Source of the DNA: Gammaproteobacteria bacterium
Lineage (GTDB): Bacteria > Pseudomonadota > Gammaproteobacteria > Pseudomonadales > Pseudohongiellaceae
Assembly: GCA_963694865.1 (NCBI GenBank)
Contig: CAVOFA010000001.1
Location: 755-64,754, forward strand
Direction of reading: 5' to 3'
DNA length: 64,000 bases
How positions within the stretch are numbered: the stretch's first letter is position 1; each line of letters begins with the position of its first letter. Below the pieces are notes generated by a model that made no database searches, was not told where the DNA came from, and saw only the letters and a program-made list of their open reading frames with translations. Below, piece by piece: positions 3,652-26,630 of the stretch. The translations under genes and the position numbers were made by a program.

Positions 3652-5586
3652 ATGACAATAAGAAAACCACTGATTTTACTATTCATTGCAACCGTGGGTG
3701 CACTTGCCTGTGCGCCGCTGGCCCTGAGCCAGACCGGCACCGCGGAGCCGGGGGACTGGGCGTCCTGGGCTGGTAATGGCCTTGCTCAGCGCTATTCACC
3801 ACTCGATCAGATTAACGCAGATAACTTTGAAGACCTTGAGATAGCCTGGCGTTTTTCCACGGCGAATTTCGGGCCCACTACCGATTTCACGAATCCGTCG
3901 ACACCGCTGGCAGTGGACGGCGTTTTATACGCGAACATAGGCAGCACTCGAAACGTGGTGGCACTTGATGCCACCAACGGACAGGTACTGTGGCTTTGGC
4001 GCTATCAGGAAGGCGAACGTTTCACCGAAGCGCCGCGTAAGGGTGCCGGTCGTGGCGTCGCCTACTGGAGCGACGGTGAGTCGTCACGGATTCTCGACGT
4101 CTCCCCGGGCTACCAACTGATTTCACTGGATACTAAAACCGGCATTCCGGATCCGAATTTTGGCGATAACGGCATCGTAGATTTGTACGTAGGCCTGCGC
4201 AACGCCGATGATCCCAGATATCCCTTCCCCGATATTGGCATTTCTGCGCCGCCCTTTGTCATGAATGACGTCATTGTGGTAGGGGCAGCACACCGCACCG
4301 GTGGCCGGCCGCGGTCCAAGTTCAATACCAAAGGCGACGTACGCGGTTTCGATGTCCGCACCGGCGAGTTGCTGTGGACCTTTCATACCATTCCCGCGCG
4401 GGGAGAAGTAGGTTTTGAGTCCTGGTTAACCGGCAACGATATCACCGGCAATTCAGGCGTCTGGGCTGCTATCTCGGGTGATCCGGAACTGGGTCATGTC
4501 TATCTGTCGGTAGAAGACCCCACTGGCGATTACTATGGTGGCGACCGCCACGGCGACAACCTGTTTTCCAGCGGCATCGTCGCGGTAGATATCAAAACTG
4601 GTGAGCGCCAATGGCACTATCAATTTATTCACCATGACATCTGGGACTGGGATGTGCCCTCTCCGGCGATTATTGGCGATTTGCCTAACGGCCGTAAAAT
4701 CGTCATGTCGGTGACCAAACAATCCTGGGTCTATACTTTCGATCGAGAGACCGGCGAGCCCATCTGGCCAATTGTAGAGCGTCCAGTACCGGCAGGAGAC
4801 GTACCCGGGGAATGGTATTCTCCGACCCAACCCTTTCCTACGCGTCCGGCTGCCTTCGATCAACAGGGATTTGACGAAGATGATTTGATCGATTGGACCC
4901 CGGAACTCCACGCGCTGGCGCTGGAATCTATCCAGGGCTTTCGCCTGAGCTCATCTATATACACGCCTCCATCTCTGACGGAAGCAACTGACGGTACACG
5001 TGGTTTGCTTTCATTGCCTTCTTCCACTGGCGGCTCCAACTGGGAAAGCTCTGCCCTTGATCCAGAGACCGGAATTCTGTACGTGCCTTCAAGGAGCGTA
5101 CTGCAGGTATTGTCATTGTCAAAAAACCCGGAATCAGACATCGATTTCAGCCAGGGTTTTGGTGTTCGTGCCCCGCGGGTCCAGGGACTCGATATCCTCA
5201 AGCCACCTTACGGCCGCATTACTGCGATCGATATGAACTCTGGTGAACATCTCTGGATGATTGCGAATGCCGATACACCGGACCGCATTACCAATCATCC
5301 GCTGTTGCAGGGCGTTGATATTCCACGCACAGGTGTACCGACACGGTCAGGTATCTTACTGACCAAAACTCTGCTGCTCCAATCTGAGGGTACCGGTGCT
5401 GCCGGAGCCAGCCCCGTTTTCCGAGCTATAGACAAGCAAACCGGCGATATTCTTGCTGAATTGGAATTGCCCTTTAATCAAACTGGCTTGCCATTTACCT
5501 ACGAACACGATGGTAAACAATACCTGGCCATGTTCATCGGTGGTGGCGGCAATGCCGCTGAGTTAATCGCTTACGCGCTGCCGTAG
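3652..5586 (+). CDS. Soluble PQQ-dependent dehydrogenase (glucose/quinate-type beta-propeller quinoprotein) with signal peptide
   Basis: The ORF opens at 3631, but AGGAGA lies 6-7 nt upstream of the ATG at 3652, which begins a signal peptide (MTIRKPLILLFIATVGALACAPLALSQ). It has repeated W-rich propeller blades and an HHDIWDWDVP block. It lacks the vicinal CC of type I alcohol dehydrogenases. Confidence 0.8.
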   Translation: MTIRKPLILLFIATVGALACAPLALSQTGTAEPGDWASWAGNGLAQRYSPLDQINADNFEDLEIAWRFSTANFGPTTDFTNPSTPLAVDGVLYANIGSTRNVVALDATNGQVLWLWRYQEGERFTEAPRKGAGRGVAYWSDGESSRILDVSPGYQLISLDTKTGIPDPNFGDNGIVDLYVGLRNADDPRYPFPDIGISAPPFVMNDVIVVGAAHRTGGRPRSKFNTKGDVRGFDVRTGELLWTFHTIPARGEVGFESWLTGNDITGNSGVWAAISGDPELGHVYLSVEDPTGDYYGGDRHGDNLFSSGIVAVDIKTGERQWHYQFIHHDIWDWDVPSPAIIGDLPNGRKIVMSVTKQSWVYTFDRETGEPIWPIVERPVPAGDVPGEWYSPTQPFPTRPAAFDQQGFDEDDLIDWTPELHALALESIQGFRLSSSIYTPPSLTEATDGTRGLLSLPSSTGGSNWESSALDPETGILYVPSRSVLQVLSLSKNPESDIDFSQGFGVRAPRVQGLDILKPPYGRITAIDMNSGEHLWMIANADTPDRITNHPLLQGVDIPRTGVPTRSGILLTKTLLLQSEGTGAAGASPVFRAIDKQTGDILAELELPFNQTGLPFTYEHDGKQYLAMFIGGGGNAAELIAYALP

Positions 5587-5614
5587 CTAGCTAAAGCTAA
5601 CTCGAAGTACAATC

Positions 5615-5654
5615 AAAGGGGTCAGAGTAGAATTACTCTGACCCCTTTTATTTT
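5615..5654. terminator. Bidirectional rho-independent terminator between the PQQ dehydrogenase and the MFS gene
   Basis: The stem is aaaggggtcagagta / tactctgacccctttt (15 bp, loop gaat). T-runs follow on both strands. Confidence 0.85.
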
Positions 5655-5697
5655 GAGCTTGTGATCAGGTCTGCTACTACTCGAAACCAATACGTGT

Positions 5698-6897
5698 TTA
5701 GGTTTTGAGTGTTCTTCCACGCTGGATGCCGAACTTAAAACTCAGCAGAGACAATACGGATGCTGCCAGCATTAGCAGCAGCAGGGGGAAGACCGTGCCA
5801 TTGAAAATGACCGCGACGAACTGCGCTGCTGCCGCCGAAAAGGCCATCTGTAAGAATCCGGTGAGGCCGGAAGCGCTGCCTGCAAATTGTGGAAATTCAT
5901 TAATCGCCGCCGCCTGCGCATTGGGCAAGGTGATGCCGTTGCCAAATACCGCCAGAGCGATTGGCGCGAATAACGCCAGCGGTTGATGCAAGCCCGCTAG
6001 CTGCAAGGCGATCGCCAGACTGATTCCCGCCACGGCAATGACGACACCGACACCAATCATGGAATCCAAATGCAGGCGCCTGCCGAAATGCCGTGCCACG
6101 TAGTTGCCCAACATAAATCCAAAAGGAATCATGACGAAATAATAGCCGTATTCAGTGGCCGGACGGTGTAGCACCGATACCATGATTTCCGGTGCCGCGG
6201 AGATAAAGGCGAAGAACACCACGGAGACGAAGGTGACGCAAAAAGCATAGCCGCAGAAGGCGCGGGAGCGAAACAGACTCACGAAGGTAAGTAGCATCGA
6301 ACCTATGCCCTCGAAGGGTACTGGATCTTTCAGCGTCTCAGGCAGTTTGTTTATTAGCACGAGAAAAATCAGTGCGCTTAGAACGCCAACGACGATGAAC
6401 ACGGATTGCCAGCCATAGAACAGCATTAGTTCGCCGCCAAGTGCCGGCGACAGCATGGGAACTACCACCATCACCATCACCAGGGTGGCGATGACTCGAG
6501 CCGCCTCGTGGGCCGGATAGACATCTCTTACGATCGCCCGCGCCAGCACCAGTCCTACAGCACCGCCGAAGGCCTGGATAATTCTGCCAATGATCAGCAA
6601 CTCGATGGAATTCGCCAGCCAGCAAAAAATCGATCCTAACAGTGTTATGCAGAGCCCGAGCAGCATAATCGGCTTGCGCCCGAATTTATCGGAAAGCGGA
6701 CCATAGAACAGAGTGCCCACGGCGATAGCCAGCATGGACAGGCTTAAGGTGAGTTGAGCCACATCGTTGCTGACTTGAAAAGTGTCTTTGATCACGGGCA
6801 GGGCGGGCAGCAAAATCTGCATGGACGCTGGGCCCAGTGCTGAAGTTGCAGCCAATAATAGGATGAGAGACTTGCTTAACGAAGAAGTAGTCGGCAA
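5698..6897 (-). CDS. MFS transporter, Bcr/CflA-type drug efflux
   Basis: 399 aa with about 12 hydrophobic segments and MFS motif A (GPLSDKFGRKPIMLLG). The start codon in the track is TTG. Confidence 0.8.
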   Translation of the reverse strand: MPTTSSLSKSLILLLAATSALGPASMQILLPALPVIKDTFQVSNDVAQLTLSLSMLAIAVGTLFYGPLSDKFGRKPIMLLGLCITLLGSIFCWLANSIELLIIGRIIQAFGGAVGLVLARAIVRDVYPAHEAARVIATLVMVMVVVPMLSPALGGELMLFYGWQSVFIVVGVLSALIFLVLINKLPETLKDPVPFEGIGSMLLTFVSLFRSRAFCGYAFCVTFVSVVFFAFISAAPEIMVSVLHRPATEYGYYFVMIPFGFMLGNYVARHFGRRLHLDSMIGVGVVIAVAGISLAIALQLAGLHQPLALFAPIALAVFGNGITLPNAQAAAINEFPQFAGSASGLTGFLQMAFSAAAAQFVAVIFNGTVFPLLLLMLAASVLSLLSFKFGIQRGRTLKT

Positions 6898-15882: not shown

Positions 15883-16737
15883 TCAGGCGCTTATTTCAAA
15901 TCGAATATTGTCGATTAGGCGGCTGGCACCTATATAACCCGCAGCCAGAATCACGAAGTGCGATTCATCCGCCTGCGCCAACTGTAAGCTGGTGGAATTG
16001 CAGATGCTGAAATAATCAGGCTTTATACCGGCGTCTTCGAGCTTGAGTTTAGCGCTGGATTCCAGCTTAAGGTACTCACGATTACCGCCCTCGATGGCGG
16101 CGGCGGTGTCGGTCAGACATCGATAGATGAGTGCGGCGGTTTGCAATTGTTCAGTACTGAGGTAGTTGTTTCTGGAACTCAGAGCCAGACCACTTTCGGT
16201 TCGCCTGGTCTCAACACCCACGATTTCCACAGCGAGAGCCAGGTCGCTCACCATCTTCTTGATGACCAGAAATTGCTGATAATCTTTTAAACCAAAGAAT
16301 GCTTGCTGCGGTTGTACGATGTTGAGTAATTTGTTGACGATTGTCGCCACACCATCGAAATGCCCCGGGCGACTGGAACCACAAAATCCTGCCGACAATC
16401 CCGGAACATGGATGAGGCTCTGTTGATCCAGGTTGGAGCCGTAAAGTTGATCGACGCCGGGGGCAAAAAGAAAGTCACAACCGACTGCTGTCAGTTTGTT
16501 TTTATCTGCTTCCAGAGTGCGAGGATAGGCATCGAGGTCTTCATTGGCACCAAATTGCAGGGGGTTGACAAAAATGCTGCTGACCACGCAGTCGGTGCTG
16601 GCCTTTGCCGCTTGCACCAATTTGATGTGACCGGCGTGGAGGTTACCCATGGTCGGGACCAGGCCGATCGATGCTTTATTGGCGCGGGCTTCGCTCAGCG
16701 CGTTCCTCAGTTCATTTTTTTGGGTGATGGTGCGCAT
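15883..16737 (-). CDS. panC: Pantoate--beta-alanine ligase
   Basis: 284 aa. It has PTMGNLHAGHIKLV (HxGH) and a typical PanC length. Confidence 0.95.
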   Translation of the reverse strand: MRTITQKNELRNALSEARANKASIGLVPTMGNLHAGHIKLVQAAKASTDCVVSSIFVNPLQFGANEDLDAYPRTLEADKNKLTAVGCDFLFAPGVDQLYGSNLDQQSLIHVPGLSAGFCGSSRPGHFDGVATIVNKLLNIVQPQQAFFGLKDYQQFLVIKKMVSDLALAVEIVGVETRRTESGLALSSRNNYLSTEQLQTAALIYRCLTDTAAAIEGGNREYLKLESSAKLKLEDAGIKPDYFSICNSTSLQLAQADESHFVILAAGYIGASRLIDNIRFEISA

Positions 16738-16756: not shown

Positions 16757-17569
16757 TTAGTTAAAGCACTGTTCGTCGGCGGGAAAAGATTGGGTTTTAA
16801 CGGCCTTTACATAGTCCGCTATCGCCCCCGGTATACCCGCGGTTGAACCGGTCATGAAATCCTTAACGAATTTTGGTGTTATCGGAGATATCCCCAGTAC
16901 ATCATGTAGCACCATGATTTGAGCGGTGGTGTCTGGCCCCGCTCCGATTCCGATCACCGGTATATCAAGCGTGTCGGTGACGGTTTTACCGAGACTGCGA
17001 GGAACGCATTCCAATAACAATATGCTTGCGCCTGCGTTCTGCAACAGTTGAGCCTCTGCAATTATTGCCTGGGCCTGGTCCGGATCTCGCCCCTGAGCGT
17101 GAAATCCGCCTATTCGATTTACCGACTGCGGAGTAAGACCCATATGGGCGCAAACAGGAATTCCACGCTCGGCCAGCAGGCGGGTAGTGTTTTCGATCCA
17201 GGCTCCACCCTCCAGTTTTACTATGTGCGCCCCGGCACGCATCAGGCGGGCAGCATTTTCCAGTGTCTGCGACTCCGAGGCATAGCTCATAAACGGCAGG
17301 TCTGCCATCAACAGGGCGCCCCGATTGCCACGTTTGACGCACTTCATATGGTAAATCATGTCGTCCATGGTGACGGGGAGGGTGCTGTCGTGCCCCTGCA
17401 GTACCATTCCCAATGAATCTCCCACTAACAGCACCTCGACTCCGGCATTGCAGCAGATAGAGGCAAAACAGGCATCGTAGGCTGTGAGACAGGCGAATTT
17501 CTCGCCACCTTGCCTAATCTTGCGCAGAGTGGTCAGGGTTACGGTTTTGTTGATTGTCTGTGTACTCAT
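16757..17569 (-). CDS. panB: 3-methyl-2-oxobutanoate hydroxymethyltransferase
   Basis: 270 aa. It has the blocks [15 protein letters not shown] and VKLEGG. Confidence 0.95.
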
Positions 17570-17654: not shown

Positions 17655-18323
17655 CTACAGCAAAGACGGCCGGGGATTGAAATAGTGCGTTCCAATTGGC
17701 AGGGTCAGAATATAGTCGACTAGTTGCTGATAGTCATCATCATTTGCGACTAAATCTATCTCGGCACAATTTACTATAAGCAGGGAAGTGCCCTTGAAAT
17801 AGTGAAAGAACTCGGCGTAGGCATCATTCAGATTCTGCAGATAGCTCAATTCTATAAGCTGTTCCGCCTCTATGCCGCGTTTTCGAACTCTGTCAAGAAG
17901 CACGGAAGTGGGGGCCTGCAGGTAGATTACCAGGTTCGGGGTTGGAGCGTCGATGGTCAGATGCCGGAATACCTTAAGGTAAAGTTCATATTCTTCCGGA
18001 TCCAGATTTTGCTGTGCGAATAACATGTCTTTATCAATGAGAAAATCCGCCACCCGGACCGGTTCGAACATGTCATTTTGACGTAGTTCCTGAATTTGCT
18101 GCGAGCGCTGAAACAGAAAGAACAATTGCGTTGATAGCGCATACTGTCTGGGGTTTTGGTAGAAGCGCTGCAGAAAGGGATTTTCATCGCTGTTTTCCAG
18201 CAAGACATCGTAGTTGAAACTTGCCGCGAGTCTCTTTGCCAGGCTGGTTTTACCAACGCCTATAGGACCTTCAATTGCAATGAAACGAGGTAGTTCCCTG
18301 ACGAAGGCGGCGTTCTGTGTCAC
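17655..18323 (-). CDS. Deoxynucleoside kinase family protein
   Basis: 222 aa with a P-loop (IAIEGPIGVGKTSLAKRL) and dNK-like blocks. Its GTG start overlaps the pcnB stop (GTGA at 18320-18323). Confidence 0.8.
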   Translation of the reverse strand: MTQNAAFVRELPRFIAIEGPIGVGKTSLAKRLAASFNYDVLLENSDENPFLQRFYQNPRQYALSTQLFFLFQRSQQIQELRQNDMFEPVRVADFLIDKDMLFAQQNLDPEEYELYLKVFRHLTIDAPTPNLVIYLQAPTSVLLDRVRKRGIEAEQLIELSYLQNLNDAYAEFFHYFKGTSLLIVNCAEIDLVANDDDYQQLVDYILTLPIGTHYFNPRPSLL

Positions 18324-19675
18324 TCGGTGTTACCGGAGGGTTTGCGTTTGCGACGACGTCTGCGTTTGCTTCCAGATTGCTCCACCGCTCCCGTTATTCC
18401 AGCTCGCTGATCGGTATCAGCGATTTGGAAGTCCGTCCACCATTGGCCCAGCATATTGAGTTCTTCGCCGGCCTCTTCTCTCAACAGCAGAAAATCGTAG
18501 GCTGCGCGAAAACGGGGGTGGTTAAATGTGCTCTCAATGCTACGGCGATTGTGCTTTTCAATGCGCAGTTGCAGTTCCCATATTTCTTTTGCAGCCAGCG
18601 TGAAGCGTTTGGGAATTGCCGTGAAATCCAGTTGCTCACGTAAGGTGGCATTGGCCGCTTGTTGGAAGCGCTGATACTCGCTGCCTTCTGCGCTGGCTGC
18701 CGCTTGCAGGCGTTGTTGTAACACCGGCCAGAGCAATGCCGCGAATAGAAAGTAAGGTGTAACGGATTTTCCCTCAGCTAGGCGGTTGTCTGTGTTACGC
18801 AGCGCCAGGTCCACCAGTGTGCGTTCACAGTCGCCTGCATCTTCCAGCGCCGCCAGGGTTGGTCCAAACAGGTATTTGCCGACTTCGAATTCTCGCAGCA
18901 GGCCAAATGTGACCTCGGCGTGTCCGTTAGTAAATAGTTTAAGGGTCTCATCGAATAATCGTGCTGGCGAGATAGATTCCAGTAAATGGGCCAGTTCGTT
19001 AATGGGGTGCCTGGTGCTGGCCTCGATAGTGAACCCCAGCTTTGCCGAAAACCGAATGGCTCTGAGCATGCGCACCGGGTCTTCCCGATAGCGTGCCGAG
19101 GGGTCGCCAATCATGCGAATTTTTTTGCTTCTCAAATCGTCCATGCCGCCGCTGAAATCCAGCACCTGGAAGTTATTGAGGGTGTAATAGAGTGCATTTA
19201 CCGTGAAATCACGGCGCAGCGCGTCTTCGTTGATGTCGCCGTAGACATTGTCCCGGAGAATCATCCCGGTGCTGGAGTGCGCGGAATCCAGGCCTTTTAT
19301 CTGCCTTCTGGAAGCGTCGTCTGCGATCTGATTCTGGGCGTCATGGTGGGCGCGAAATGTAGTGACTTCAATAATTTCCCGGCCATAGCGAATATGCACA
19401 ATCTTAAAACGTCGGCCTATAATCCGCGCGTTGCGGAATAACTTTCTAAGTTCTTCAGGCGTTGCATTGGTGGTGATGTCGAAGTCTTTGGGCTGCAATC
19501 CCAGCAATAAATCTCGGACCCCGCCGCCTACCAGGTAGGCATGAAATCCTCCGTCAGTTAGTTTGTATAAAACTTTAAGAGCACTGGGGGAAATATTGCT
19601 GCGTGAAACTGTGTGCTGGTCTCGTTCGATCAGCGTTGCGTTTTCAAGTCCCGGTAGCGGGTTGGTGTGAATCAT
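18320..19675 (-). CDS. pcnB: Poly(A) polymerase I
   Basis: 451 aa. It has the nucleotidyltransferase head (LVGGGVRDLLLG, DFDI), a tRNA-NT/PAP body and a basic C-terminal tail (KRRRRRKRK). Confidence 0.9.
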   Translation of the reverse strand: MIHTNPLPGLENATLIERDQHTVSRSNISPSALKVLYKLTDGGFHAYLVGGGVRDLLLGLQPKDFDITTNATPEELRKLFRNARIIGRRFKIVHIRYGREIIEVTTFRAHHDAQNQIADDASRRQIKGLDSAHSSTGMILRDNVYGDINEDALRRDFTVNALYYTLNNFQVLDFSGGMDDLRSKKIRMIGDPSARYREDPVRMLRAIRFSAKLGFTIEASTRHPINELAHLLESISPARLFDETLKLFTNGHAEVTFGLLREFEVGKYLFGPTLAALEDAGDCERTLVDLALRNTDNRLAEGKSVTPYFLFAALLWPVLQQRLQAAASAEGSEYQRFQQAANATLREQLDFTAIPKRFTLAAKEIWELQLRIEKHNRRSIESTFNHPRFRAAYDFLLLREEAGEELNMLGQWWTDFQIADTDQRAGITGAVEQSGSKRRRRRKRKPSGNTE

Positions 19676-19974
19676 TACTTATGGATTCGCTGTGCAGAAG
19701 AGTGGAGGAAAGCCAGGCGCTTGTCTATCCAGTTGACAGGCCTATCAGCAGGAATTTACGCGCTGGTCGACTGCTTGTATCTGAATTCTTAGTGCAAGTT
19801 ATGGTGCAAATAATAGTTCAATACAGCTAGCGTAACACGGACGGCGTTGGATGAAACGGCCTATTGCGGATGAGCGCTTCAGGACTCGCAAGACATTACT
19901 GTATTGTTCGGAGGTGCCCCAGAATCCTGGATGAAACTCAGCCCGGTTTGACTTGTGGTGAGAGGGAAGATCAT

Positions 19975-20002
19975 GGGGGGGGGGTGATTACACCCCCCCC
20001 CC
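19975..20002. repeat. G10-TGATTACA-C10 palindrome (12-bp stem, 4-nt loop) built from two homopolymer tracts
   Basis: Direct reading gives G x10 at 19975-19984, tgattaca at 19985-19992 and C x10 at 19993-20002. T85-A92 and G86-C91 extend the stem, and the loop is ATTA. Confidence 0.95.
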
Positions 20003-20247
20003 AAGGGAAGAAAAGAGATTTTATTATTATTGCTATTATTTGTGTGGTTATTATTGTTATGTAATCGGTACCAATAACGGCACCCCAAAGCTACAAGGCG
20101 ATACCTCCCCAACCGGTGACAATAAGCCACCTCTGGCCAGGAACTCGACCTTATTATTATTTAATGCACTAACCTTAGTTGTTTAACTCAGTAATGCTAT
20201 TCTTGTTTTTATTGGGCTTATTATTATTATTTATTGTTATTATTCCA
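19975..20247 (-). ncRNA. Candidate CrcZ-like A-rich (AAnAAnAA repeat) Hfq/Crc-sequestering sRNA; both ends approximate
   Basis: - It lies in an 831-bp non-coding gap between cbrB and pcnB, the crcZ position in Pseudomonas.
- A sigma-54 -24/-12 element lies just upstream on the minus strand.
- Minus-strand A-rich clusters sit at 20219-20245 (AAUAAUAACAAUAAAUAAUAAUAAUAA), 20199-20213 (AAUAAAAACAAGAAU), 20151-20164 (UUAAAUAAUAAUAA) and 20019-20060 (AUAACAAUAAUAACCACACAAAUAAUAGCAAUAAUAAUAAAA).
- GC stem-loops sit between them (20115-20131 and 20067-20084).
- The G10/C10 hairpin is a possible 3' structure.
- The only ORFs here are repeat artefacts. Confidence 0.6.
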
Positions 20248-20258
20248 GTAATACAAGG

Positions 20259-20273
20259 GCACTTACTGTGCCA
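20259..20273 (-). promoter_or_regulatory. Sigma-54 (-24/-12) promoter candidate for the A-rich RNA
   Basis: The minus strand reads TGGCACAGTAAGTGC, against the consensus TGGCAC-N5-TTGC. The GG-N10-GC spacing is exact. The element is itself palindromic (GGCAC-N5-GTGCC), so its orientation is inferred from the upstream IHF/UAS sites and the downstream A-rich repeats. Confidence 0.55.
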
Positions 20274-20292
20274 GAGTTAAAATATCCATATA

Positions 20293-20305
20293 TATCAAAT
20301 AGTTA
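20293..20305. promoter_or_regulatory. IHF-consensus match between the putative enhancer and the -24/-12 element
   Basis: TATCAAATAGTTA fits WATCAANNNNTTR exactly. It sits in an AT-rich stretch about 20-45 bp upstream of the -24 GG. Confidence 0.35.
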
Positions 20306-20346
20306 AATTTATACACGCTTGAAATTATTTTATTTCTTGGGGTTAT

Positions 20347-20392
20347 TGTTACTTTAAGTCACTTATTTATGAGTAGAAGGGTAGCGGTAACA
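20347..20392. promoter_or_regulatory. TGTTAC ... GTAACA inverted half-sites (putative CbrB enhancer)
   Basis: TGTTAC lies at 20347-20352 and GTAACA at 20387-20392, 34 bp apart. They sit about 75-120 bp upstream of the -24 element on the minus-strand reading. From memory, these hexamers are the half-sites reported for Pseudomonas CbrB, but the published spacing is shorter. Confidence 0.35.
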
Positions 20393-20506
20393 GTTTTCGA
20401 TGACTATCGCCGGATTGTGTGGGCGGCACACTCTGCTCTGGCGTTGGTAAGAAGTTAGATAAAAATTGCATCGATTACAGTGTCACCGGTACTGAGATTG
20501 GGGCAG

Positions 20507-21886
20507 TCAAACAGTCTGTTTCTTCTTGCGCTGAATGCCAAAGCGTTGCCTGCGCTCCCACAAACACTTACGACTTATACCCAGTTTTTTGGCGAGATGC
20601 GTTTCATTCATCATGTCTTGATGTTCCAACACGAAGCGTTGAAAGTAGTCTTCAAGAGATAACTCTTCGATTGGTTTTGGCTGTGCTATTGCCGTTGCGG
20701 CGGAAGTTTGTGCTGAAACGGTTTTGACGCTTTCGCCGTCGATAGCAAGTAGCTCTTCGCTGATCTGCTTGGTTTCTGCCAGGACCACCGCTCTTTCGAT
20801 CGCATTTTCCAGTTCGCGAACATTACCAGGCCAGTGATATTCAGCTATTGCGCGGATGGCACCATTGCTATATTTGAGCAGGGGTGTCTTCAGGCGTTTG
20901 CAGGTTCTTTGCAAGATCGCGTCCGCCAGATCCAGAATGTCATTACCCCGTTCTCGCAAGGGCGGGATTAATAAGGTCATGACATTGATGCGGTAATACA
21001 GGTCTTCCCTGAATTCGCCATCGACAACAAGCTGTTTTAGGTTACGATGTGTGGCGGCGACCAGGCGTACATCTACCTTGGTTGATTGCACCGAGCCAAC
21101 TTTTCGGATTTCACTTTCCTGTAATACTCGTAGTAGCCGAGCCTGCGCGTGCAGCGGTAATTCGCCTATTTCGTCCAGAAATAGTGTGCTGCCATTCGCC
21201 GCCTCAACCAGGCCTGTGCGAGTTGCTGTCGCCCCAGTGAATGCGCCTTTCTCGTGGCCGAATAACTCGGATTCAATTAAGTTTTCAGGTATCGCCGCGC
21301 AATTAACCGAGATCATCTCCTGGTCATAGCGGCTGCTTAAATTATGTATCGCCCGTACCACTAATTCTTTGCCGGTACCAGACTCGCCATTAATCAGCAC
21401 AGTTGAACTTGTAAGAGCAACCTTCCTTATTCTGCGTAACAACTCTATCATTTGCGGACAACTGCCGATCATGTCATGAACGGGGGGTATTATTTCTGTG
21501 TCGACTGGTTTGTTCCTGGGTGCAGATTTGGCGTGTTCTCGAATCACTTTCGCTACCGATTCAATGATCTCATTGTGTTCAAATGGTTTTGCAATGTAGT
21601 CCACCGCACCCATTCTCATGGAATCGATCGCCGAGCGAATGCTCGAATAACTTGTCATTATAAGCACCGGCGTGTTGGTTGCCTTAATCAGGTCGGTACC
21701 CGGTGCGCCCGGTAAGCGCAAGTCGCTGATGATGACATCAAAATCGTCCATGTCGTATTTTCCCAGCGATTCCTTTACCGTGCCCGCTTCGCTCACCTGA
21801 TATTTGTGGCGTTCGAGCAGGCGCTTCAATGCCGTGCGAATGACTACTTCGTCTTCAACTACCAAAATCTGGTTCATTTGCGTCAT
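20507..21886 (-). CDS. cbrB: Sigma-54-dependent response regulator, NtrC family (CbrB-like)
   Basis: 459 aa. It has a REC domain (VIISDLRLPG), an AAA+ domain with GESGTGKELVVRAIH and the GAFTGA loop, and a C-terminal HTH (LAKKLGISRKCLWERRQRFGI). It is paired with an SLC5-domain kinase, as in CbrAB. Confidence 0.85.
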   Translation of the reverse strand: MTQMNQILVVEDEVVIRTALKRLLERHKYQVSEAGTVKESLGKYDMDDFDVIISDLRLPGAPGTDLIKATNTPVLIMTSYSSIRSAIDSMRMGAVDYIAKPFEHNEIIESVAKVIREHAKSAPRNKPVDTEIIPPVHDMIGSCPQMIELLRRIRKVALTSSTVLINGESGTGKELVVRAIHNLSSRYDQEMISVNCAAIPENLIESELFGHEKGAFTGATATRTGLVEAANGSTLFLDEIGELPLHAQARLLRVLQESEIRKVGSVQSTKVDVRLVAATHRNLKQLVVDGEFREDLYYRINVMTLLIPPLRERGNDILDLADAILQRTCKRLKTPLLKYSNGAIRAIAEYHWPGNVRELENAIERAVVLAETKQISEELLAIDGESVKTVSAQTSAATAIAQPKPIEELSLEDYFQRFVLEHQDMMNETHLAKKLGISRKCLWERRQRFGIQRKKKQTV

Positions 21887-21894
21887 ATTGCTTA

Positions 21895-24861
21895 TTAGAC
21901 CGTGTGCTGCGAAGGGTTACGTTGATCCTGATCACCGATCTTCGAGTCAGGAACGTCCTGGCATCGTGGAAAGTGTAGTATAACCTGAGTTCCAGCCGCC
22001 TTTGAATTTCCCACTGAGCTAATTATATCAATATCTCCGTGTAAATCTTCAACTATACTGAATACCAGTGATAAACCCAGCCCCGTGCCCTCGCCTGCCT
22101 CTTTGGTGGTGAAGAAGGGGTCGAAAATGCGATCCTTGATGACGTCGGGAATGCCAATACCCTCATCGGTGATGGTGATTCGAACCTGATCGCCTTCGAT
22201 GCTAGCCTGCAATTCGATTTGGTCGCCTGACTGACTCGCGTCTCTGGCATTGCCAATCAGGTTAACCAGCACCTGAATCAGGCGCTGGGAATCTCCCAAA
22301 ATTCTGGCCGCCGGATCGACCTCCAGTTTGAAAGATAAATCCTTGCTTTTTTTGTCCAGGGAGATGAGAACCTGCGCTTCATTGATACAATCGGCGATAG
22401 AGACAACCTCGTTCTCATGCTGAGTTTTATTGGCACCAGCGTGGGCGAAATTGACCAGTGACTGCAGTATTTTCGATGTGCGATTGGTTTGTTCGATGAT
22501 TTGCTGCGCCAAATTGTTCAATTCATCAATTTCATATTCATCACGTATTGTTTGAGCCAAACAGGCGATGCCTGTAATTGGGTTACCAATTTCATGTGCC
22601 ACGCCAGCTGCTAACCGACCTATAGAGGCCAGTCTCTCACTGTGGCTTAAACCTGCTTCCAGAATTTCGGTTTCAGTTATATCTTCAATGAGAATGATCA
22701 CCCCTTCATGACTGGCATCCTGCTCGGCCGATCGTTCGATCACTGCCTTGTGCAAGTTTACGGTCTTGGTTTGGCCGCTTAAATCAAAATTGTGCTTATA
22801 GGAATGGTTGGCGTCTTCATTCATGAAATTCAAAAGTAAAGACAACCATGGCTGCTTCAAATCAGCGAGTTGTGAACCGACTACATCGGCACCGTTGATG
22901 TCGGTAAATTCGGTGAGCGCGCGATTCCATATCACGATTTCGTGGTCCGAACTCAAGGAACAAACACCGAGTGGAAGATCCAGCAGAATCTGCCGGTGGT
23001 AACGCCGCAGGCTGTCCAGGTCCGCTGCCATGCCCGATAGGTTGCTGCGGTATGCTTCGATGCGGTTCTCTATGACATTGACATCCGAGCTGCCGTGCTT
23101 GGAAATAATGCTATAGGGTAGGTAGCCATCAACCAGCTTGCCGGCTATGGAGGGCCCGAGCAAGCCAGAAAGATTTGCTTCCAATTTGCCGCGCAGCAGT
23201 CTGAGGTCATAGGGACGACGATTGTCCATGGTGATATTCAGATCTTGCAACGCTTGCGTGACTTCCCGTGTCGCTGTCTCCTGACCCAGGGGTTTGCTCA
23301 AGCTGATGATAAACTCGCCCGGTGATTTGGCAACCAGGCCACTACGTTTGCGGCGCTTGATCGTGTCGAGTGTGCAAATATCCGCAGAGCTACGCTCTTC
23401 ATCGGTGGTGCTACTCAACAGGGAAATCGTTACGAAAAGAAGGCCGTTGGCGATGAGTGACAATGCAGTTACTTCACGCCAGTTTATGGACGCTAACGAT
23501 ATCGGCACGGTCTCGATAAAAATAGGCAGCATCAGGAAAACGAACCAGATCAGTACGCCGGCAACGAGGCCGGTAATTAGCCCTTTCTTGTTGGCCTGTG
23601 GCCAATACAGAATAGCGATAATGCCCGGTAAGAATTGCAGACAGGCAGTAAATGCAATCGTGCCAATAAATTCAATACTAGTACGCTGATCCAGCAGATA
23701 ATGGAAAAGAAAACCAAGCCATATAACGGCCGTGATGAGTGCGCGACGTTTCCACAACAACCAACGATAGATGTCATCTTTTGCCGTGGGTTGATAGAGT
23801 GGCAGGACCAGGTGGTTGAGACACATATTTGACAGTGCCAGGGTAATAACAATGATTAAACCGCTGGCAGCGGATAATCCGCCGACATAGGCGAGCACGG
23901 TAATCAATGGCGCACCATAGGCTACCCCAATGACCAGCGGATAGTATTCTACCTGCACCGCACTGCCCGATTGCAATCCGGCCCACAGTATTGGTAGCAC
24001 GGGCAGACTGATCAGGAGAAAATATAGCGGTAGGCCCCAACTCGCGGAAGCCAGTGCACGTTGACCCTGGTTGCCATTAAAGGTGACATAAAACATATGC
24101 GGCATGGCCACAGCCGCGCTGAAGAATAGCAGGGTAAATACGTGGAAAGAGCTAAAGTAGTCAACGTCCTTAAGGCTGGCCAGCAACTCAGGCTGTCCCT
24201 GTAACCATTGGTTTAATTCGTTGGGCCCACCAAAACCACTGTAAATAGCAAAAACCCCCACCGCTAGAAACGCCACTAACTTGACCAGAGATTCGAAGGC
24301 GATGGCCAGAATGAGACCATCATGCTGGGTCCTGCCGGTTCGCTGTGAGGTGCCGAAGAGAATGGAGAACAGCGTAATAAGAACACAGAAACCAAAAGCC
24401 AAGACACCTTGGGAGGCATTCGAAGATAGAATCTCTGCGGTGTCAGAAACCGCTCGAATCTGTAAGGCAATGAGTGGTGTTACCCCGACAAGAATGACCA
24501 GGGTCGTTGCCGTGCCTGCCCAGGGCGAGCGGTATCTAAATGCCATCAGGTCGGCGAGGGAACTCAATTGGTAAGTTCTTGTTAAAGCCAGAATGGGTCT
24601 CAGGAGCAAGGGAGAGAGCAGAAAGGCAAGAGATATACCGATGTAATTAGCAAGGTAGCCATAGCCATCGCGCTGGGCGTGGCCGACGGCCGTGTAGTAT
24701 GCCCAGACACTGGCAAATACCCCCAATGACAGTACATAGACCACCGGATGATGGACTATTTTTTGTGGAATCCAGCCCCTGTCAGTGACGAAGGCAATGC
24801 CAAATAACAGCATCAGATAGATGCTGCCCAGGCCAATGATTGTGGTTAGTTCGTAGTTCAT
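21895..24861 (-). CDS. cbrA: Sensor histidine kinase with N-terminal sodium/solute-symporter (SLC5/SSS)-like domain (CbrA-like)
   Basis: 988 aa. The roughly 500-aa multi-TM N-terminus carries TRTYQLSSLADLMAFRYRS. A PAS region follows, then the H-box (AAGVAHEIGNPITGI), G1 (DEGIGIP) and G2 (GTGLGLS). Confidence 0.85.
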   Translation of the reverse strand: MNYELTTIIGLGSIYLMLLFGIAFVTDRGWIPQKIVHHPVVYVLSLGVFASVWAYYTAVGHAQRDGYGYLANYIGISLAFLLSPLLLRPILALTRTYQLSSLADLMAFRYRSPWAGTATTLVILVGVTPLIALQIRAVSDTAEILSSNASQGVLAFGFCVLITLFSILFGTSQRTGRTQHDGLILAIAFESLVKLVAFLAVGVFAIYSGFGGPNELNQWLQGQPELLASLKDVDYFSSFHVFTLLFFSAAVAMPHMFYVTFNGNQGQRALASASWGLPLYFLLISLPVLPILWAGLQSGSAVQVEYYPLVIGVAYGAPLITVLAYVGGLSAASGLIIVITLALSNMCLNHLVLPLYQPTAKDDIYRWLLWKRRALITAVIWLGFLFHYLLDQRTSIEFIGTIAFTACLQFLPGIIAILYWPQANKKGLITGLVAGVLIWFVFLMLPIFIETVPISLASINWREVTALSLIANGLLFVTISLLSSTTDEERSSADICTLDTIKRRKRSGLVAKSPGEFIISLSKPLGQETATREVTQALQDLNITMDNRRPYDLRLLRGKLEANLSGLLGPSIAGKLVDGYLPYSIISKHGSSDVNVIENRIEAYRSNLSGMAADLDSLRRYHRQILLDLPLGVCSLSSDHEIVIWNRALTEFTDINGADVVGSQLADLKQPWLSLLLNFMNEDANHSYKHNFDLSGQTKTVNLHKAVIERSAEQDASHEGVIILIEDITETEILEAGLSHSERLASIGRLAAGVAHEIGNPITGIACLAQTIRDEYEIDELNNLAQQIIEQTNRTSKILQSLVNFAHAGANKTQHENEVVSIADCINEAQVLISLDKKSKDLSFKLEVDPAARILGDSQRLIQVLVNLIGNARDASQSGDQIELQASIEGDQVRITITDEGIGIPDVIKDRIFDPFFTTKEAGEGTGLGLSLVFSIVEDLHGDIDIISSVGNSKAAGTQVILHFPRCQDVPDSKIGDQDQRNPSQHTV

Positions 24862-24937: not shown

Positions 24938-25138
24938 TCAGAGTTCATCGGAGTCTTTCTCACGATGGGCCCAACTGCCTACCAGGATAACCAGGAATCC
25001 GACAATAAAAGGTCGGTACCAGGCGCCATCAGCCTGGTTCATCCAGTCCGCACTCAACAGAAAGAGTAGATAGATAATAACCAGCAAGATCAAAATGGAA
25101 CGAGGTATGTACACTAGCCCTCCACTATTTCGGCGCAT
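24938..25138 (-). CDS. Small two-TM membrane protein upstream of cbrA (CbrX-like)
   Basis: 66 aa with two hydrophobic helices (ILILLVIIYLLFLL and FIVGFLVILVG) and a charged tail. It overlaps the gluQ 3' end by 14 nt and ends 76 nt before cbrA. Confidence 0.5.
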   Translation of the reverse strand: MRRNSGGLVYIPRSILILLVIIYLLFLLSADWMNQADGAWYRPFIVGFLVILVGSWAHREKDSDEL

Positions 25139-26111
25139 CCTGACGGATAGTAGCTAACTTGGGCACGGCATGTATATCCCAGTGCTCAATTCCCCAGGCT
25201 AACAGGGACTGGGGCTCAGCGTTGAGCAGAGCGCCAGGGGCTGCCTGCCCCAGGAAATTCAGGCATTGGTGTAGTAGTCGGGATGAATTTTGGATGTCGG
25301 CAGCAGGGGCGAATGTTTGCTTGCTGATTTTATCTCCTAGCGCGTTGATGACAATTGGAATATGTCCGTATACCACAGTGGAGTAATCGAGCAGTTGCTG
25401 TAAATAGATTTGCCGTGGCGTCGAATCCAGCAAATCGAAGCCTCTTATAACGTGAGTGATGCCCTGATATTCATCGTCAACAACTACGGCCAGTTGATAG
25501 GCGAATAGCTTGTCCTTGCGGCGAATGACAAAGTCGCCGGTCTCGGTGTAAATAGCATGTTGGTGGGCGCCCTGGATAAGGTCCAGAAATTCAATAGCCT
25601 TAGCGTCGGTTTTAACTCTGACTGCAAACTCATGACTTGCCGGAGTCAGACGCTGACGACAGCGGCCATCGTAAACAGAACCCATGTTTCTAATTTGCGA
25701 TCTGCTACAGTCGCAGCGATAACACAGTTGCCGGTCCTGCAGCTCTTTTAGAGCCTCGGCGTAGTTTTTCAGTCGTTGGCTCTGATAAAGAACTTCGCCG
25801 TCCCAGTGTAATCCCAATTGGGTTAATTGCTGTAGAATCTGATCGGCGGCGCCTGCTGGCTCCCGGGGTGGGTCCAGGTCTTCCATGCGCAGCAGCCACA
25901 AACCATTATTTGCTTTGGCGTCCATGTAGCTGGCCACGGCGGCCAACACAGATCCAAAATGCAGCGGGCCAGTTGGCGACGGCGCGAATCTGCCAATATA
26001 ACCGGAGTGTGACTTGCCAATCGTCGCATTTGCATTCGCTGAGACAGATTTGGCTGCAGCCGGATTGGTAGGGTTTGACATCGTAGCCTGTAATAGTGAC
26101 GGCGGATGCAA
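25125..26111 (-). CDS. gluQ: tRNA glutamyl-Q(34) synthetase
   Basis: 328 aa (the start could be the ATG at 26081). It has the class I HIGH region (RFAPSPTGPLHFGS), resembles a truncated GluRS, and lies immediately downstream of dksA as in E. coli and Pseudomonas. Confidence 0.85.
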   Translation of the reverse strand: MHPPSLLQATMSNPTNPAAAKSVSANANATIGKSHSGYIGRFAPSPTGPLHFGSVLAAVASYMDAKANNGLWLLRMEDLDPPREPAGAADQILQQLTQLGLHWDGEVLYQSQRLKNYAEALKELQDRQLCYRCDCSRSQIRNMGSVYDGRCRQRLTPASHEFAVRVKTDAKAIEFLDLIQGAHQHAIYTETGDFVIRRKDKLFAYQLAVVVDDEYQGITHVIRGFDLLDSTPRQIYLQQLLDYSTVVYGHIPIVINALGDKISKQTFAPAADIQNSSRLLHQCLNFLGQAAPGALLNAEPQSLLAWGIEHWDIHAVPKLATIRQDAPK

Positions 26112-26162: not shown

Positions 26163-26630
26163 TTAGCTGCCTAGCTGCCTTTCCTTCATTTCGTCCAGGG
26201 TTTTGCAATCGATGCACTTGTTAGCCGTGGGCCTGGCTTCCAGTCGGCGAATACCAATTTCGATGCCACAGGAGTCGCAGTAGCCATAATCATCGACAGC
26301 AATTAATTCGACAGTGCTATCAATTTTTTTGATTAGCTTGCGTTCACGATCTCGTGTTCTTAGCTCAAGACTGAACTCTTCTTCCTGTGTGGCCCGGTCA
26401 GCAGGGTCTGGATAATTCGCCGCATCGTCCTGCATATGATGTACCGTGCGATCGACTTCCTGCATTAGCTGTTCGCGCCAATTCATTAAAATCTGTTTGA
26501 AATGATCTTGTTGTTTTTCGTTCATATACGCTTCGCCCTTCTTGGGCTTGTAGGGAACGAAGTCCGTAAGAACTGGTTGAGATTCTGCGTTGCTGGTATT
26601 GGACATAATCAACGATGCCTCTTGCTGCAT
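26163..26630 (-). CDS. dksA: RNA polymerase-binding transcription factor DksA
   Basis: It has the coiled-coil tip ([25 protein letters not shown]) and a C4 zinc finger (CDSCG...CIDC). The start is uncertain (26630 or 26606). Confidence 0.9.

Follow-up and report, generated by a model that had tools for sequence, protein, structure and literature searches.

The DNA analyzed here is a window of 64,000 nucleotides (nt) from a gammaproteobacterial contig (CAVOFA010000001.1), and the element in question lies in the spacer between the genes cbrB and pcnB. The spacer carries a predicted small RNA (sRNA) which is probably a divergent and compact orthologue of CrcZ, i.e. a decoy RNA that is driven by CbrB and sigma-54 and that would titrate Hfq/Crc. 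The host lineage is Pseudohongiellaceae, which is placed in the order Pseudomonadales by NCBI taxonomy; it is a marine gammaproteobacterium outside of the Pseudomonadaceae. An earlier note, made from the nucleotide sequence without database searches, had proposed a CrcZ-like sponge RNA at this location. The features of the locus are listed in Table 1.

Table 1. Positions of the predicted RNA, its parts and control elements, and the surrounding genes in the 64-kb window
Feature	Positions	Strand	Remarks
Predicted sRNA	19975–20247	minus	~273 nt; 5′ end ~20247 from promoter spacing; 3′ end at or shortly after the hairpin ending at 19975
5′ A-rich block	20196–20244	minus	(ARN)n tracts of 5, 5 and 6 triplets (AAUAAUAACAAUAAAUAAUAAUAAUAAG ... 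AAUAAAAACAAGAAUAGC)
SL1	20166–20197	minus	near-invariant stem-loop, GCAUUACUGAGUUAAACAACUAAGGUUAGUGC
A-rich linker	20150–20161	minus	(AAU)3AAG, 4 ARN triplets
Central structured domain	20096–20151	minus	long-range helix around GGUGGC-UUAUU-GUCACC (20131–20115)
SL3	20067–20084	minus	GGUGCC-GUUAUU-GGUACC
3′ A-rich block	20020–20058	minus	(ARN)4 AACAAUAAUAAC and (ARN)7 AAUAAUAGCAAUAAUAAUAAA
3′ hairpin	19975–20002	minus	G10UG-UAAU-CAC10, 12 bp, without U-tract
Sigma-54 promoter	20259–20273	minus	TGGCAC-AGTAA-GTGC; GG at −24, GC at −12
IHF-like site	20293–20305	minus	TAACTATTTGATA (pattern YAANNNNTTGATW); between upstream activating sequence and promoter
CbrB-type upstream activating sequence	20347–20392	minus	TGTTAC 20392–20387, GTGACT 20362–20357, GTAACA 20352–20347; read from sequence
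cbrB-pcnB spacer	19676–20506		831 bp
cbrB orthologue	20507–21886	minus	response regulator and sigma-54 activator
cbrA orthologue	21895–24861	minus	988 amino acid sensor kinase, long N-terminal membrane domain
gluQ	25125–26111	minus
dksA	26163–26630	minus
pcnB	18320–19675	minus	poly(A) polymerase I; NCBIfam TIGR01942, 502 bits
Deoxynucleoside-kinase-family gene	17655–18323	minus	PF01712, 133 bits
panB	16757–17569	minus
panC	15883–16737	minus

Gene order and control elements

The predicted RNA is directly downstream of cbrB, and cbrB, the RNA and pcnB are all on the minus strand. The gene order dksA-gluQ-cbrA-cbrB-spacer-pcnB-...-panB-panC, which the earlier note had likened to that of Pseudomonas, is borne out by gene calls, by Pfam and NCBIfam matches and by alignments of CbrA and CbrB. 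The spacer is AT-rich, as had been judged by eye, with a GC content of 0.28–0.39 compared to about 0.5 in the flanks. Sixteen further loci were retrieved for CbrB relatives of 81%–100% identity. All loci that extend far enough show cbrA, cbrB, a spacer of 674–839 nt and then pcnB, and pcnB adjoins the spacer in every related locus that extends past it.

The CbrB amino acid (aa) sequence displays the Response_reg, Sigma54_activat and AAA_lid_14 domains (Pfam). It has 60% identity over its full length to a protein of Pseudomonas sp. v388 that is encoded directly upstream of a bona fide CrcZ (359.9 bits; locus L003). A scan with one genome per GTDB species gave a Gammaproteobacteria metagenome-assembled genome (MAG, 80%) and an uncultured Pseudohongiella (78%) as the best matches; those following Pseudomonas sp. 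v388 are Marinobacter (57%–60%), together with Oleispira, Oleiphilaceae and Pseudomonadales MAGs. Unrelated proteins of the NtrC family show at most 46% identity to the window CbrB. In a large protein search the identical CbrB was found on JGI, ENA and Logan metagenome contigs, along with many relatives at 81%–89% identity, some of which are named Pseudohongiella sp. or Pseudohongiellaceae.

The C-terminal part of CbrA displays PAS, HisKA and HATPase_c domains (Pfam). The N-terminus has no SSF/SLC5 match in Pfam at E ≤ 0.001, and orthology was therefore assessed by full-length alignment to the Pseudomonas CbrA. Residues 1–982 have 49.8% identity to the product of the gene that precedes cbrB in Pseudomonas sp. 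v388, and CbrA is 70%–72% identical to its counterparts in Pseudohongiella-type loci. Because both proteins align over their full length, and because CrcZ is found next to the Pseudomonas cbrB, the sequences place in this window an orthologous cbrA-cbrB pair in a family outside of the Pseudomonadaceae.

Upstream of the predicted RNA is a CbrB-type upstream activating sequence. The arrangement TGTTAC(C/T)GCTACCC...GTAACA is present in 12 out of 12 Pseudohongiellaceae-type spacers. Mutagenesis of PcrcZ and PcrcY in P. putida had defined TGTTAC (F) and GTAACA (R) as the subsites for CbrB (PMC6296734). The earlier note had placed a sigma-54 promoter ahead of the A-rich clusters. This sequence (TGGCAC-N5-GTGC, 20273–20259) is the only match to the strict pattern TGGCACNNNNNKTGC in the 64-kb window; it is found at the same place in nine relatives, with weaker −12 variants in the loci L086–L088. 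The IHF pattern has three matches in 64 kb against 2.5 expected by chance and is not significant alone; IHF-like sequences are present at the equivalent place in several relatives. A CbrB-IHF-sigmaN layout is known at the Pseudomonas PcrcZ (PMC6296734), and the window shares this arrangement as far as sequence elements alone can tell. Given these conserved elements, the RNA would be under the control of CbrB, RpoN and IHF.

A-rich tracts and conserved hairpins

The pattern AANAANAA (AAnAAnAA) has 71 matches in the window when both strands are counted. Fifteen overlapping matches are within positions 20021–20244, and all of these are on the minus strand. Dinucleotide shuffles of the 273-nt unit have a mean of 0.91 ± 1.08 matches and a maximum of 8, and a count of 15 is not attained in any of 2000 shuffles. 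Elsewhere in the window, two is the highest count for a stretch of 273 nt, and the opposite strand of the unit has none. The fifteen matches make up six (ARN)n tracts (n ≥ 4), of 5, 5, 6, 4, 4 and 7 triplets. The four A-rich clusters with at least six AAnAAnAA matches that had been seen on the minus strand are thus real. Their description as near-pure AAU repeats is slightly overstated, since AAU dominates but AAC, AAA, AAG and AGC triplets are also present. By their lengths, the tracts (28 adjacent nt, then 18, 12, 12 and 21 nt) would fit roughly three to five Hfq hexamers per RNA.

Eleven Pseudohongiellaceae-type relatives, whose CbrB proteins are 78%–89% identical to that of the window, carry a homologous unit of 271–282 nt that ends in a G/C hairpin. 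The alignment of these with the window unit (alignment A1, 12 sequences) gives an RNAalifold consensus of 39 pairs. Standard pairs make up 94.0% of the cells at the consensus pairs, compared to 35%–52% when the partners are slid by 1–3 columns. Compensatory double changes are found in 12 pairs, against 2–7 in the slid controls, and 0 of 500 shuffles reach 12. The minimum free energy of the window unit is −81.9 kcal/mol, with z = −3.3 relative to shuffled sequences.

The compensatory changes are distributed over several helices. The central domain (helices 4–6) has 16 pairs, of which seven are compensatory, e.g. an exchange of GC and AU in five sequences at three positions; five of these pairs are in the long-range helix (helices 4 and 5) and two are among the four pairs of helix 6, the GGUGGC/GUCACC hairpin. 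SL3 (helix 7) is 93% paired with three of five pairs compensatory, and the 3′ hairpin (helix 8) is conserved with two compensatory pairs. The hairpins that the earlier note had drawn at 20115–20131 and 20067–20084 have the right coordinates and are kept in the relatives. The A-rich blocks are unpaired in the consensus (A1 columns 1–56, 114–128 and 222–292), with the exception of the linker tract, whose last two or three bases pair into the base of the central-domain helix. Apart from these bases, the covariation-supported consensus agrees with the proposed CrcZ-like layout of single-stranded A-rich motifs between hairpins, of which the unit has four domains. An alignment of spacers from related genomes had been suggested as a check on whether blocks and stems are maintained; in these 12 sequences the A-rich blocks are kept and the stems covary. 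The 5′ A-rich block is strongly conserved in A1, and the family members contain 9–17 AAnAAnAA matches.

A spacer of this composition could also be a non-functional AT-rich, low-complexity sequence, or could encode a small protein. Open reading frames (ORFs) of 64–83 aa can indeed be drawn in the window, among them one of 83 aa on the minus strand (19879–20130), and for the metagenome contigs L081 and L082 a gene caller has assigned a 70 aa gene to the opposite strand. However, the frames, strands and lengths of these ORFs vary, and the loci L001, L002 and L090 have no comparable ORFs on the RNA strand. The coding hypothesis was rejected, as none of the ORFs keeps its frame, strand or position among the relatives; the earlier statement that the gap has no credible ORF holds in this sense. 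A neutral spacer would not be expected to show covariation, strand-specific motif enrichment and conserved promoter elements. These explanations are thus extremely improbable. Because of the covarying pairs, the conserved blocks and the lack of a conserved ORF, the spacer is predicted to encode a structured non-coding RNA that is under selection.

The most uniform element of the alignment is SL1. Its helices 1–3 are 94%–98% paired and show almost no variation in the 12 sequences, and its ACUGAG core recurs in Marinobacter, Oleiphilaceae and the Pseudomonas CrcZ. SL1 is more conserved than any A-rich tract, which suggests an extra, sequence-specific interaction. A genuine CbrB/sigma-54-driven sRNA might therefore act mainly through SL1, which would pair with targets or bind some protein that is not Hfq/Crc, with the A-rich tracts serving only in Hfq loading or stability. 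The near-invariance of SL1 goes beyond structural need at a CbrB identity of only 78%–89%, and the ACUGAG core common to Marinobacter and the Pseudomonas CrcZ is also in keeping with this possibility. However, the number of A-rich tracts, their positions and their lack of pairing are conserved equally well. The tracts correspond to the design of CrcZ as an Hfq decoy, which was defined by experiment (PMC4063720), and no target complementarity was identified. Such a mode of action is considered unlikely.

A sequence variation was observed in SL1. Loci L084 and L085 are Logan contigs with the same CbrB, but within SL1 of L084 (~2565–2595) there is a tandem duplication of 15 nt (ACTGAGTTATACAAC), which reflects either natural variation or an error of assembly.

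Relationship to CrcZ and to other RNAs

At gathering thresholds, Rfam has no match in the window, and over 14 related loci only the Pseudomonas locus is matched. The earlier note had warned that covariance searches may miss the RNA, and at these thresholds they do. A permissive Rfam scan of the spacer finds CrcZ (RF01675) at 28.6 bits and E = 1.4e-5, on the minus strand at positions 20243–19950 and over model positions 1–398. This is the sole credible match; the other three have E ≥ 3, and the CrcY and CrcX models give no match in the same scan. Thus the search with CrcZ, CrcY and CrcX models that had been recommended yields a CrcZ match, albeit one below the cut-off of the family, and nothing for the other two. 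The posterior probabilities of the RF01675 alignment are high for three regions: the 5′ A-rich block, which aligns with the 5′ end of the Rfam CrcZ, the 3′ A-rich block, which aligns with its last A-rich motifs, and the terminal hairpin.

RF01675 also matches seven of eight related loci at 19.7–38.9 bits, always at the syntenic site and on the same strand, and it is the only family at E ≤ 1 in these 46.5 kb. The spacers of Marinobacter and Oleiphilaceae score 33–58 bits. There is accordingly a graded series from Pseudomonas (360 bits) through Marinobacter/Oleiphilaceae to Pseudohongiellaceae. A joint alignment shows collinear blocks, which are the 5′ A-rich block, ACUGAG, (C)CGUUUG(G)C, the 3′ A-rich block and the terminator hairpin. 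The CCG(Y)GUUUGG sequence at SL3 is similar to UCCGUUUGC, a block of Marinobacter and Pseudomonas CrcZ.

A separate covariance model, R1, was built from the 12 Pseudohongiellaceae sequences. It detects a single copy in the window, at the predicted sRNA, with 253.5 bits (the window sequence is part of the training set). Its matches in Oleiphilaceae and in locus L072 are weak. As reciprocal support from R1 is weak, the homology claim rests on the sub-threshold Rfam matches together with synteny and regulatory elements. By this evidence the predicted RNA is a distant homologue of CrcZ and lies outside of RF01675 as now delimited. The earlier term "CrcZ analogue" is therefore right about the likeness but too modest about the relationship, as the RF01675 matches and the synteny indicate more than analogy.

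CrcZ of P. aeruginosa has 407 nt and six (A-R-N)n≥4 repeats (PMC4063720). CrcZ of Pseudomonas and Azotobacter (RF01675) has the same place between cbrB and pcnB and the same set of CbrB subsites, IHF site and sigma-54 promoter, here recognized as sequence elements. It also has six (ARN)n≥4 tracts in unpaired regions, which by the same criterion is the number found in the window RNA, and the order 5′ A-rich block, ACUGAG, CGUUUG, 3′ A-rich block and G/C 3′ hairpin is common to both. There are also differences. The window RNA is shorter, ~273 nt compared to ~400 nt, and part of the central region is absent. Its tracts are dominated by AAU, whereas those of CrcZ are of the AAC/AAA type. The Pseudomonas CrcZ in L003 has 14 AAnAAnAA matches and six tracts and is ~110 nt longer than the window RNA, which has 15 and six. 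Unlike CrcZ, the window lineage has no U-tract, and its host belongs to Pseudohongiellaceae and not to Pseudomonadaceae.

The spacers of Marinobacter, Oleiphilaceae, Oleispira and a Pseudomonadales MAG share the synteny, the upstream activating sequence, the sigma-54 promoter, A-rich tracts and a terminator. No account of these CrcZ-like RNAs was found in the literature searched. The RNAs of Marinobacter and Oleiphilaceae are ~375–386 nt long and of the AAC/AAA type and are thus closer to the Pseudomonas CrcZ than is the window RNA. Three of the related loci have unusual arrangements. In an uncultured Oleispira (L008, ~5040–5920) the cbrB-pcnB spacer is ~1.2 kb and apparently contains two tandem units, each with TGTTAC/GTAACA sites, a TTGGCAC sigma-54-type promoter and A-rich tracts, which resembles a tandem pair of CrcZ and a CrcY/X-like RNA. 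In Pseudomonadales MAG_142 (L072, ~5050–5270) the unit after cbrB is apparently much shorter, with roughly 180 nt between promoter and terminator. Its sigma-54 promoter is followed by a short stretch with one hairpin, by ~130 nt that are almost entirely AAnAAnAA repeats and by a canonical terminator, and R1 matches the 3′ part of the unit at 30.1 bits. In Pseudomonadales MAG SIP_5_Bin2 (L010, 4877–4951) a CbrB homologue with 55% identity is followed after ~50 nt by pcnB, with no sRNA between them.

CrcY and CrcX are paralogous Crc sRNAs (of P. putida/P. fluorescens and P. syringae) that are A-rich, CbrB/sigma-54-dependent decoys acting with CrcZ (PMC5113210, PMC6296734). They are at other genomic locations than the window RNA, and neither the motif count nor R1 finds a second copy of the RNA in the 64-kb window. 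The A. baumannii (Acinetobacter baumannii) sRNA99 is A-rich with AAN motifs, is associated with Hfq and has been called reminiscent of CrcZ (PMC12802169); its resemblance to the window RNA is one of analogy, and no CbrAB context or homology is implied. CsrB, RsmY and RsmZ have been likened to CrcZ in that a global repressor of translation is titrated by single-stranded motifs which are repeated between hairpins (PMC4063720). They differ in having GGA motifs that bind CsrA/RsmA, in being controlled by GacA/UvrY and in their unrelated sequence.

Proposed function, 3′ end and distribution

In the known system, ARN repeats bind to Hfq at its distal face, Crc stabilizes the Hfq-RNA complexes, and CrcZ acts as a decoy that frees A-rich initiation regions (PMC4063720, PMC5113210). 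Extrapolating from Pseudomonas and Azotobacter, a scarcity of preferred carbon sources would lead CbrA to activate CbrB, and CbrB, IHF and sigma-54 RNA polymerase would then transcribe the RNA. Its ARN tracts would bind Hfq hexamers at their distal face, and Crc would take part if it is encoded in the genome. Hfq would in this way be drawn off the A-rich ribosome-binding regions of catabolic mRNAs, and catabolite repression would be relieved. The 3′ end of the RNA is probably set by the G/C hairpin.

Several results weigh against the RNA being a CrcZ-type Hfq decoy. The score of 28.6 bits is far below the RF01675 gathering cut-off of 95 bits, and the A-rich composition may inflate weak scores of this kind. 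R1 misses the Pseudomonas CrcZ and matches Marinobacter only at 17 bits (E = 0.016). The most conserved element, SL1, is not A-rich, which hints at an additional or different partner. Searches of the 64-kb window by tblastn with P. aeruginosa Crc and Hfq found neither hfq nor crc; the Crc query sequence was verified against PDB 4JG3. In the window and in six relatives (L084, L086–L088, L094 and L095) the 3′ hairpin does not lead into a U-tract, and a consensus scan of the window did not find an intrinsic terminator for the RNA. A match of the terminator scan at 20272–20258 was rejected, as it is merely the palindromic sigma-54 promoter.

The latter two features could mean that the sigma-54 promoter mainly drives pcnB, and that the structured A-rich sequence belongs to pcnB, as a long 5′ leader or an attenuator, and is not an independent sRNA. 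The adjacency of the RNA and pcnB, which is kept across several families, would also fit such an arrangement. However, five relatives have eight T residues in the nine nt after the 3′ hairpin, which makes a canonical terminator at the same position. In addition, the length of the unit is tight (271–282 nt) whereas its distance to pcnB is variable, and CrcZ is a discrete RNA in Pseudomonas. Finally, a separate conserved block between the sRNA hairpin and pcnB may provide pcnB with its own promoter. The block, GCCGTTTCATCCAACGCCGTCCGTGTTACGCT, is at positions 19829–19860 (minus strand) and is found in the window, L084 and L086–L088. Other relatives have CCGT(T)GTATCAT at this site, and the sequences are extended −10-like (TGTTACGCT / TGTATCAT). 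The block at 19860–19829 and the TGTATCAT-like sequences suggest a pcnB promoter that is independent of the RNA. A pcnB leader is thus a very doubtful explanation of the locus.

If the RNA is a discrete CrcZ-type decoy, its termination may be Rho-dependent or leaky towards pcnB, since the window lineage lacks a U-tract; this is speculative. Downstream of the hairpin, the first ~30 nt are rich in C and poor in G in the window and in five of the six relatives without a U-tract, L094 being the exception. Such a stretch is compatible with Rho-dependent termination and subsequent trimming as far as the hairpin, or with transcription that continues towards pcnB. The run of C residues in the 3′ hairpin (19975–19984) varies in length. 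It is C10 in the window and C9 in the near-identical L081 and L082 contigs, and slippage or an assembly error could account for the difference.

A 2022 review gives Pseudomonas and Azotobacter as the only genera in which cbrA-cbrB-crcZ has been described and calls the system unique to the Pseudomonadaceae (PMC8871633), and CbrAB/CrcZ has been regarded as exclusive to pseudomonads (PMC6296734). These reviews are contradicted by the complete cbrA-cbrB-sRNA-pcnB module, which is seen in at least four further lineages of heterotrophic marine bacteria, and in these lineages the RNA of the module escapes standard Rfam-based annotation. In the open-access full-text literature no description of such an RNA, and no functional link of CrcZ or CbrB to Marinobacter, Pseudohongiella, Alcanivorax or Halomonas, was found, although an earlier description elsewhere is possible. 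The novelty that had been claimed outside of Pseudomonas/Azotobacter-type genomes holds to the extent of this searchable literature. The window RNA extends a known system by a divergent CrcZ member and does not represent a new mechanism.

The wider set of sequences helps in finding the essential features of CrcZ, which so far comprise six ARN tracts, a stem-loop with ACUGAG and a hairpin with CGUUUG, and it should aid the study of the CbrA signal. The 12-sequence alignment with its structure could seed a new RNA family model. Reverse catabolite repression based on an Hfq sponge is suggested for abundant bacteria of the ocean.

A broader and rather unlikely proposition is that CbrA-CbrB-CrcZ did not originate in the Pseudomonadaceae and is an ancestral circuit for carbon status in a wide range of marine Pseudomonadales (Pseudohongiellaceae, Marinobacter/Oleiphilaceae, Oleispira and others). 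According to this proposition Pseudohongiellaceae would have a distinct compact class of the RNA, with SL1 bound by a sequence-specific partner other than Hfq, and a sub-clade that includes the window would have lost the terminator, resulting in read-through into pcnB or Rho coupling to it. If this were the case, loss of the terminator with CbrB/sigma-54 transcription reaching pcnB would tie carbon status to poly(A)-dependent RNA turnover.

Two minor observations concern the neighboring genes. An ORF of 66 aa with two hydrophobic stretches is present between gluQ and cbrA (24938–25138, minus strand), in a position like that of the small cbrX ORF of P. putida; it stops 77 nt before the cbrA start and does not overlap with cbrA. 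On the other side of the spacer, the start of the deoxynucleoside-kinase-family gene and the pcnB stop codon overlap by 4 nt. This gene is found after pcnB in all Pseudohongiellaceae-type loci, at a position which in the Pseudomonas locus is occupied by folK.

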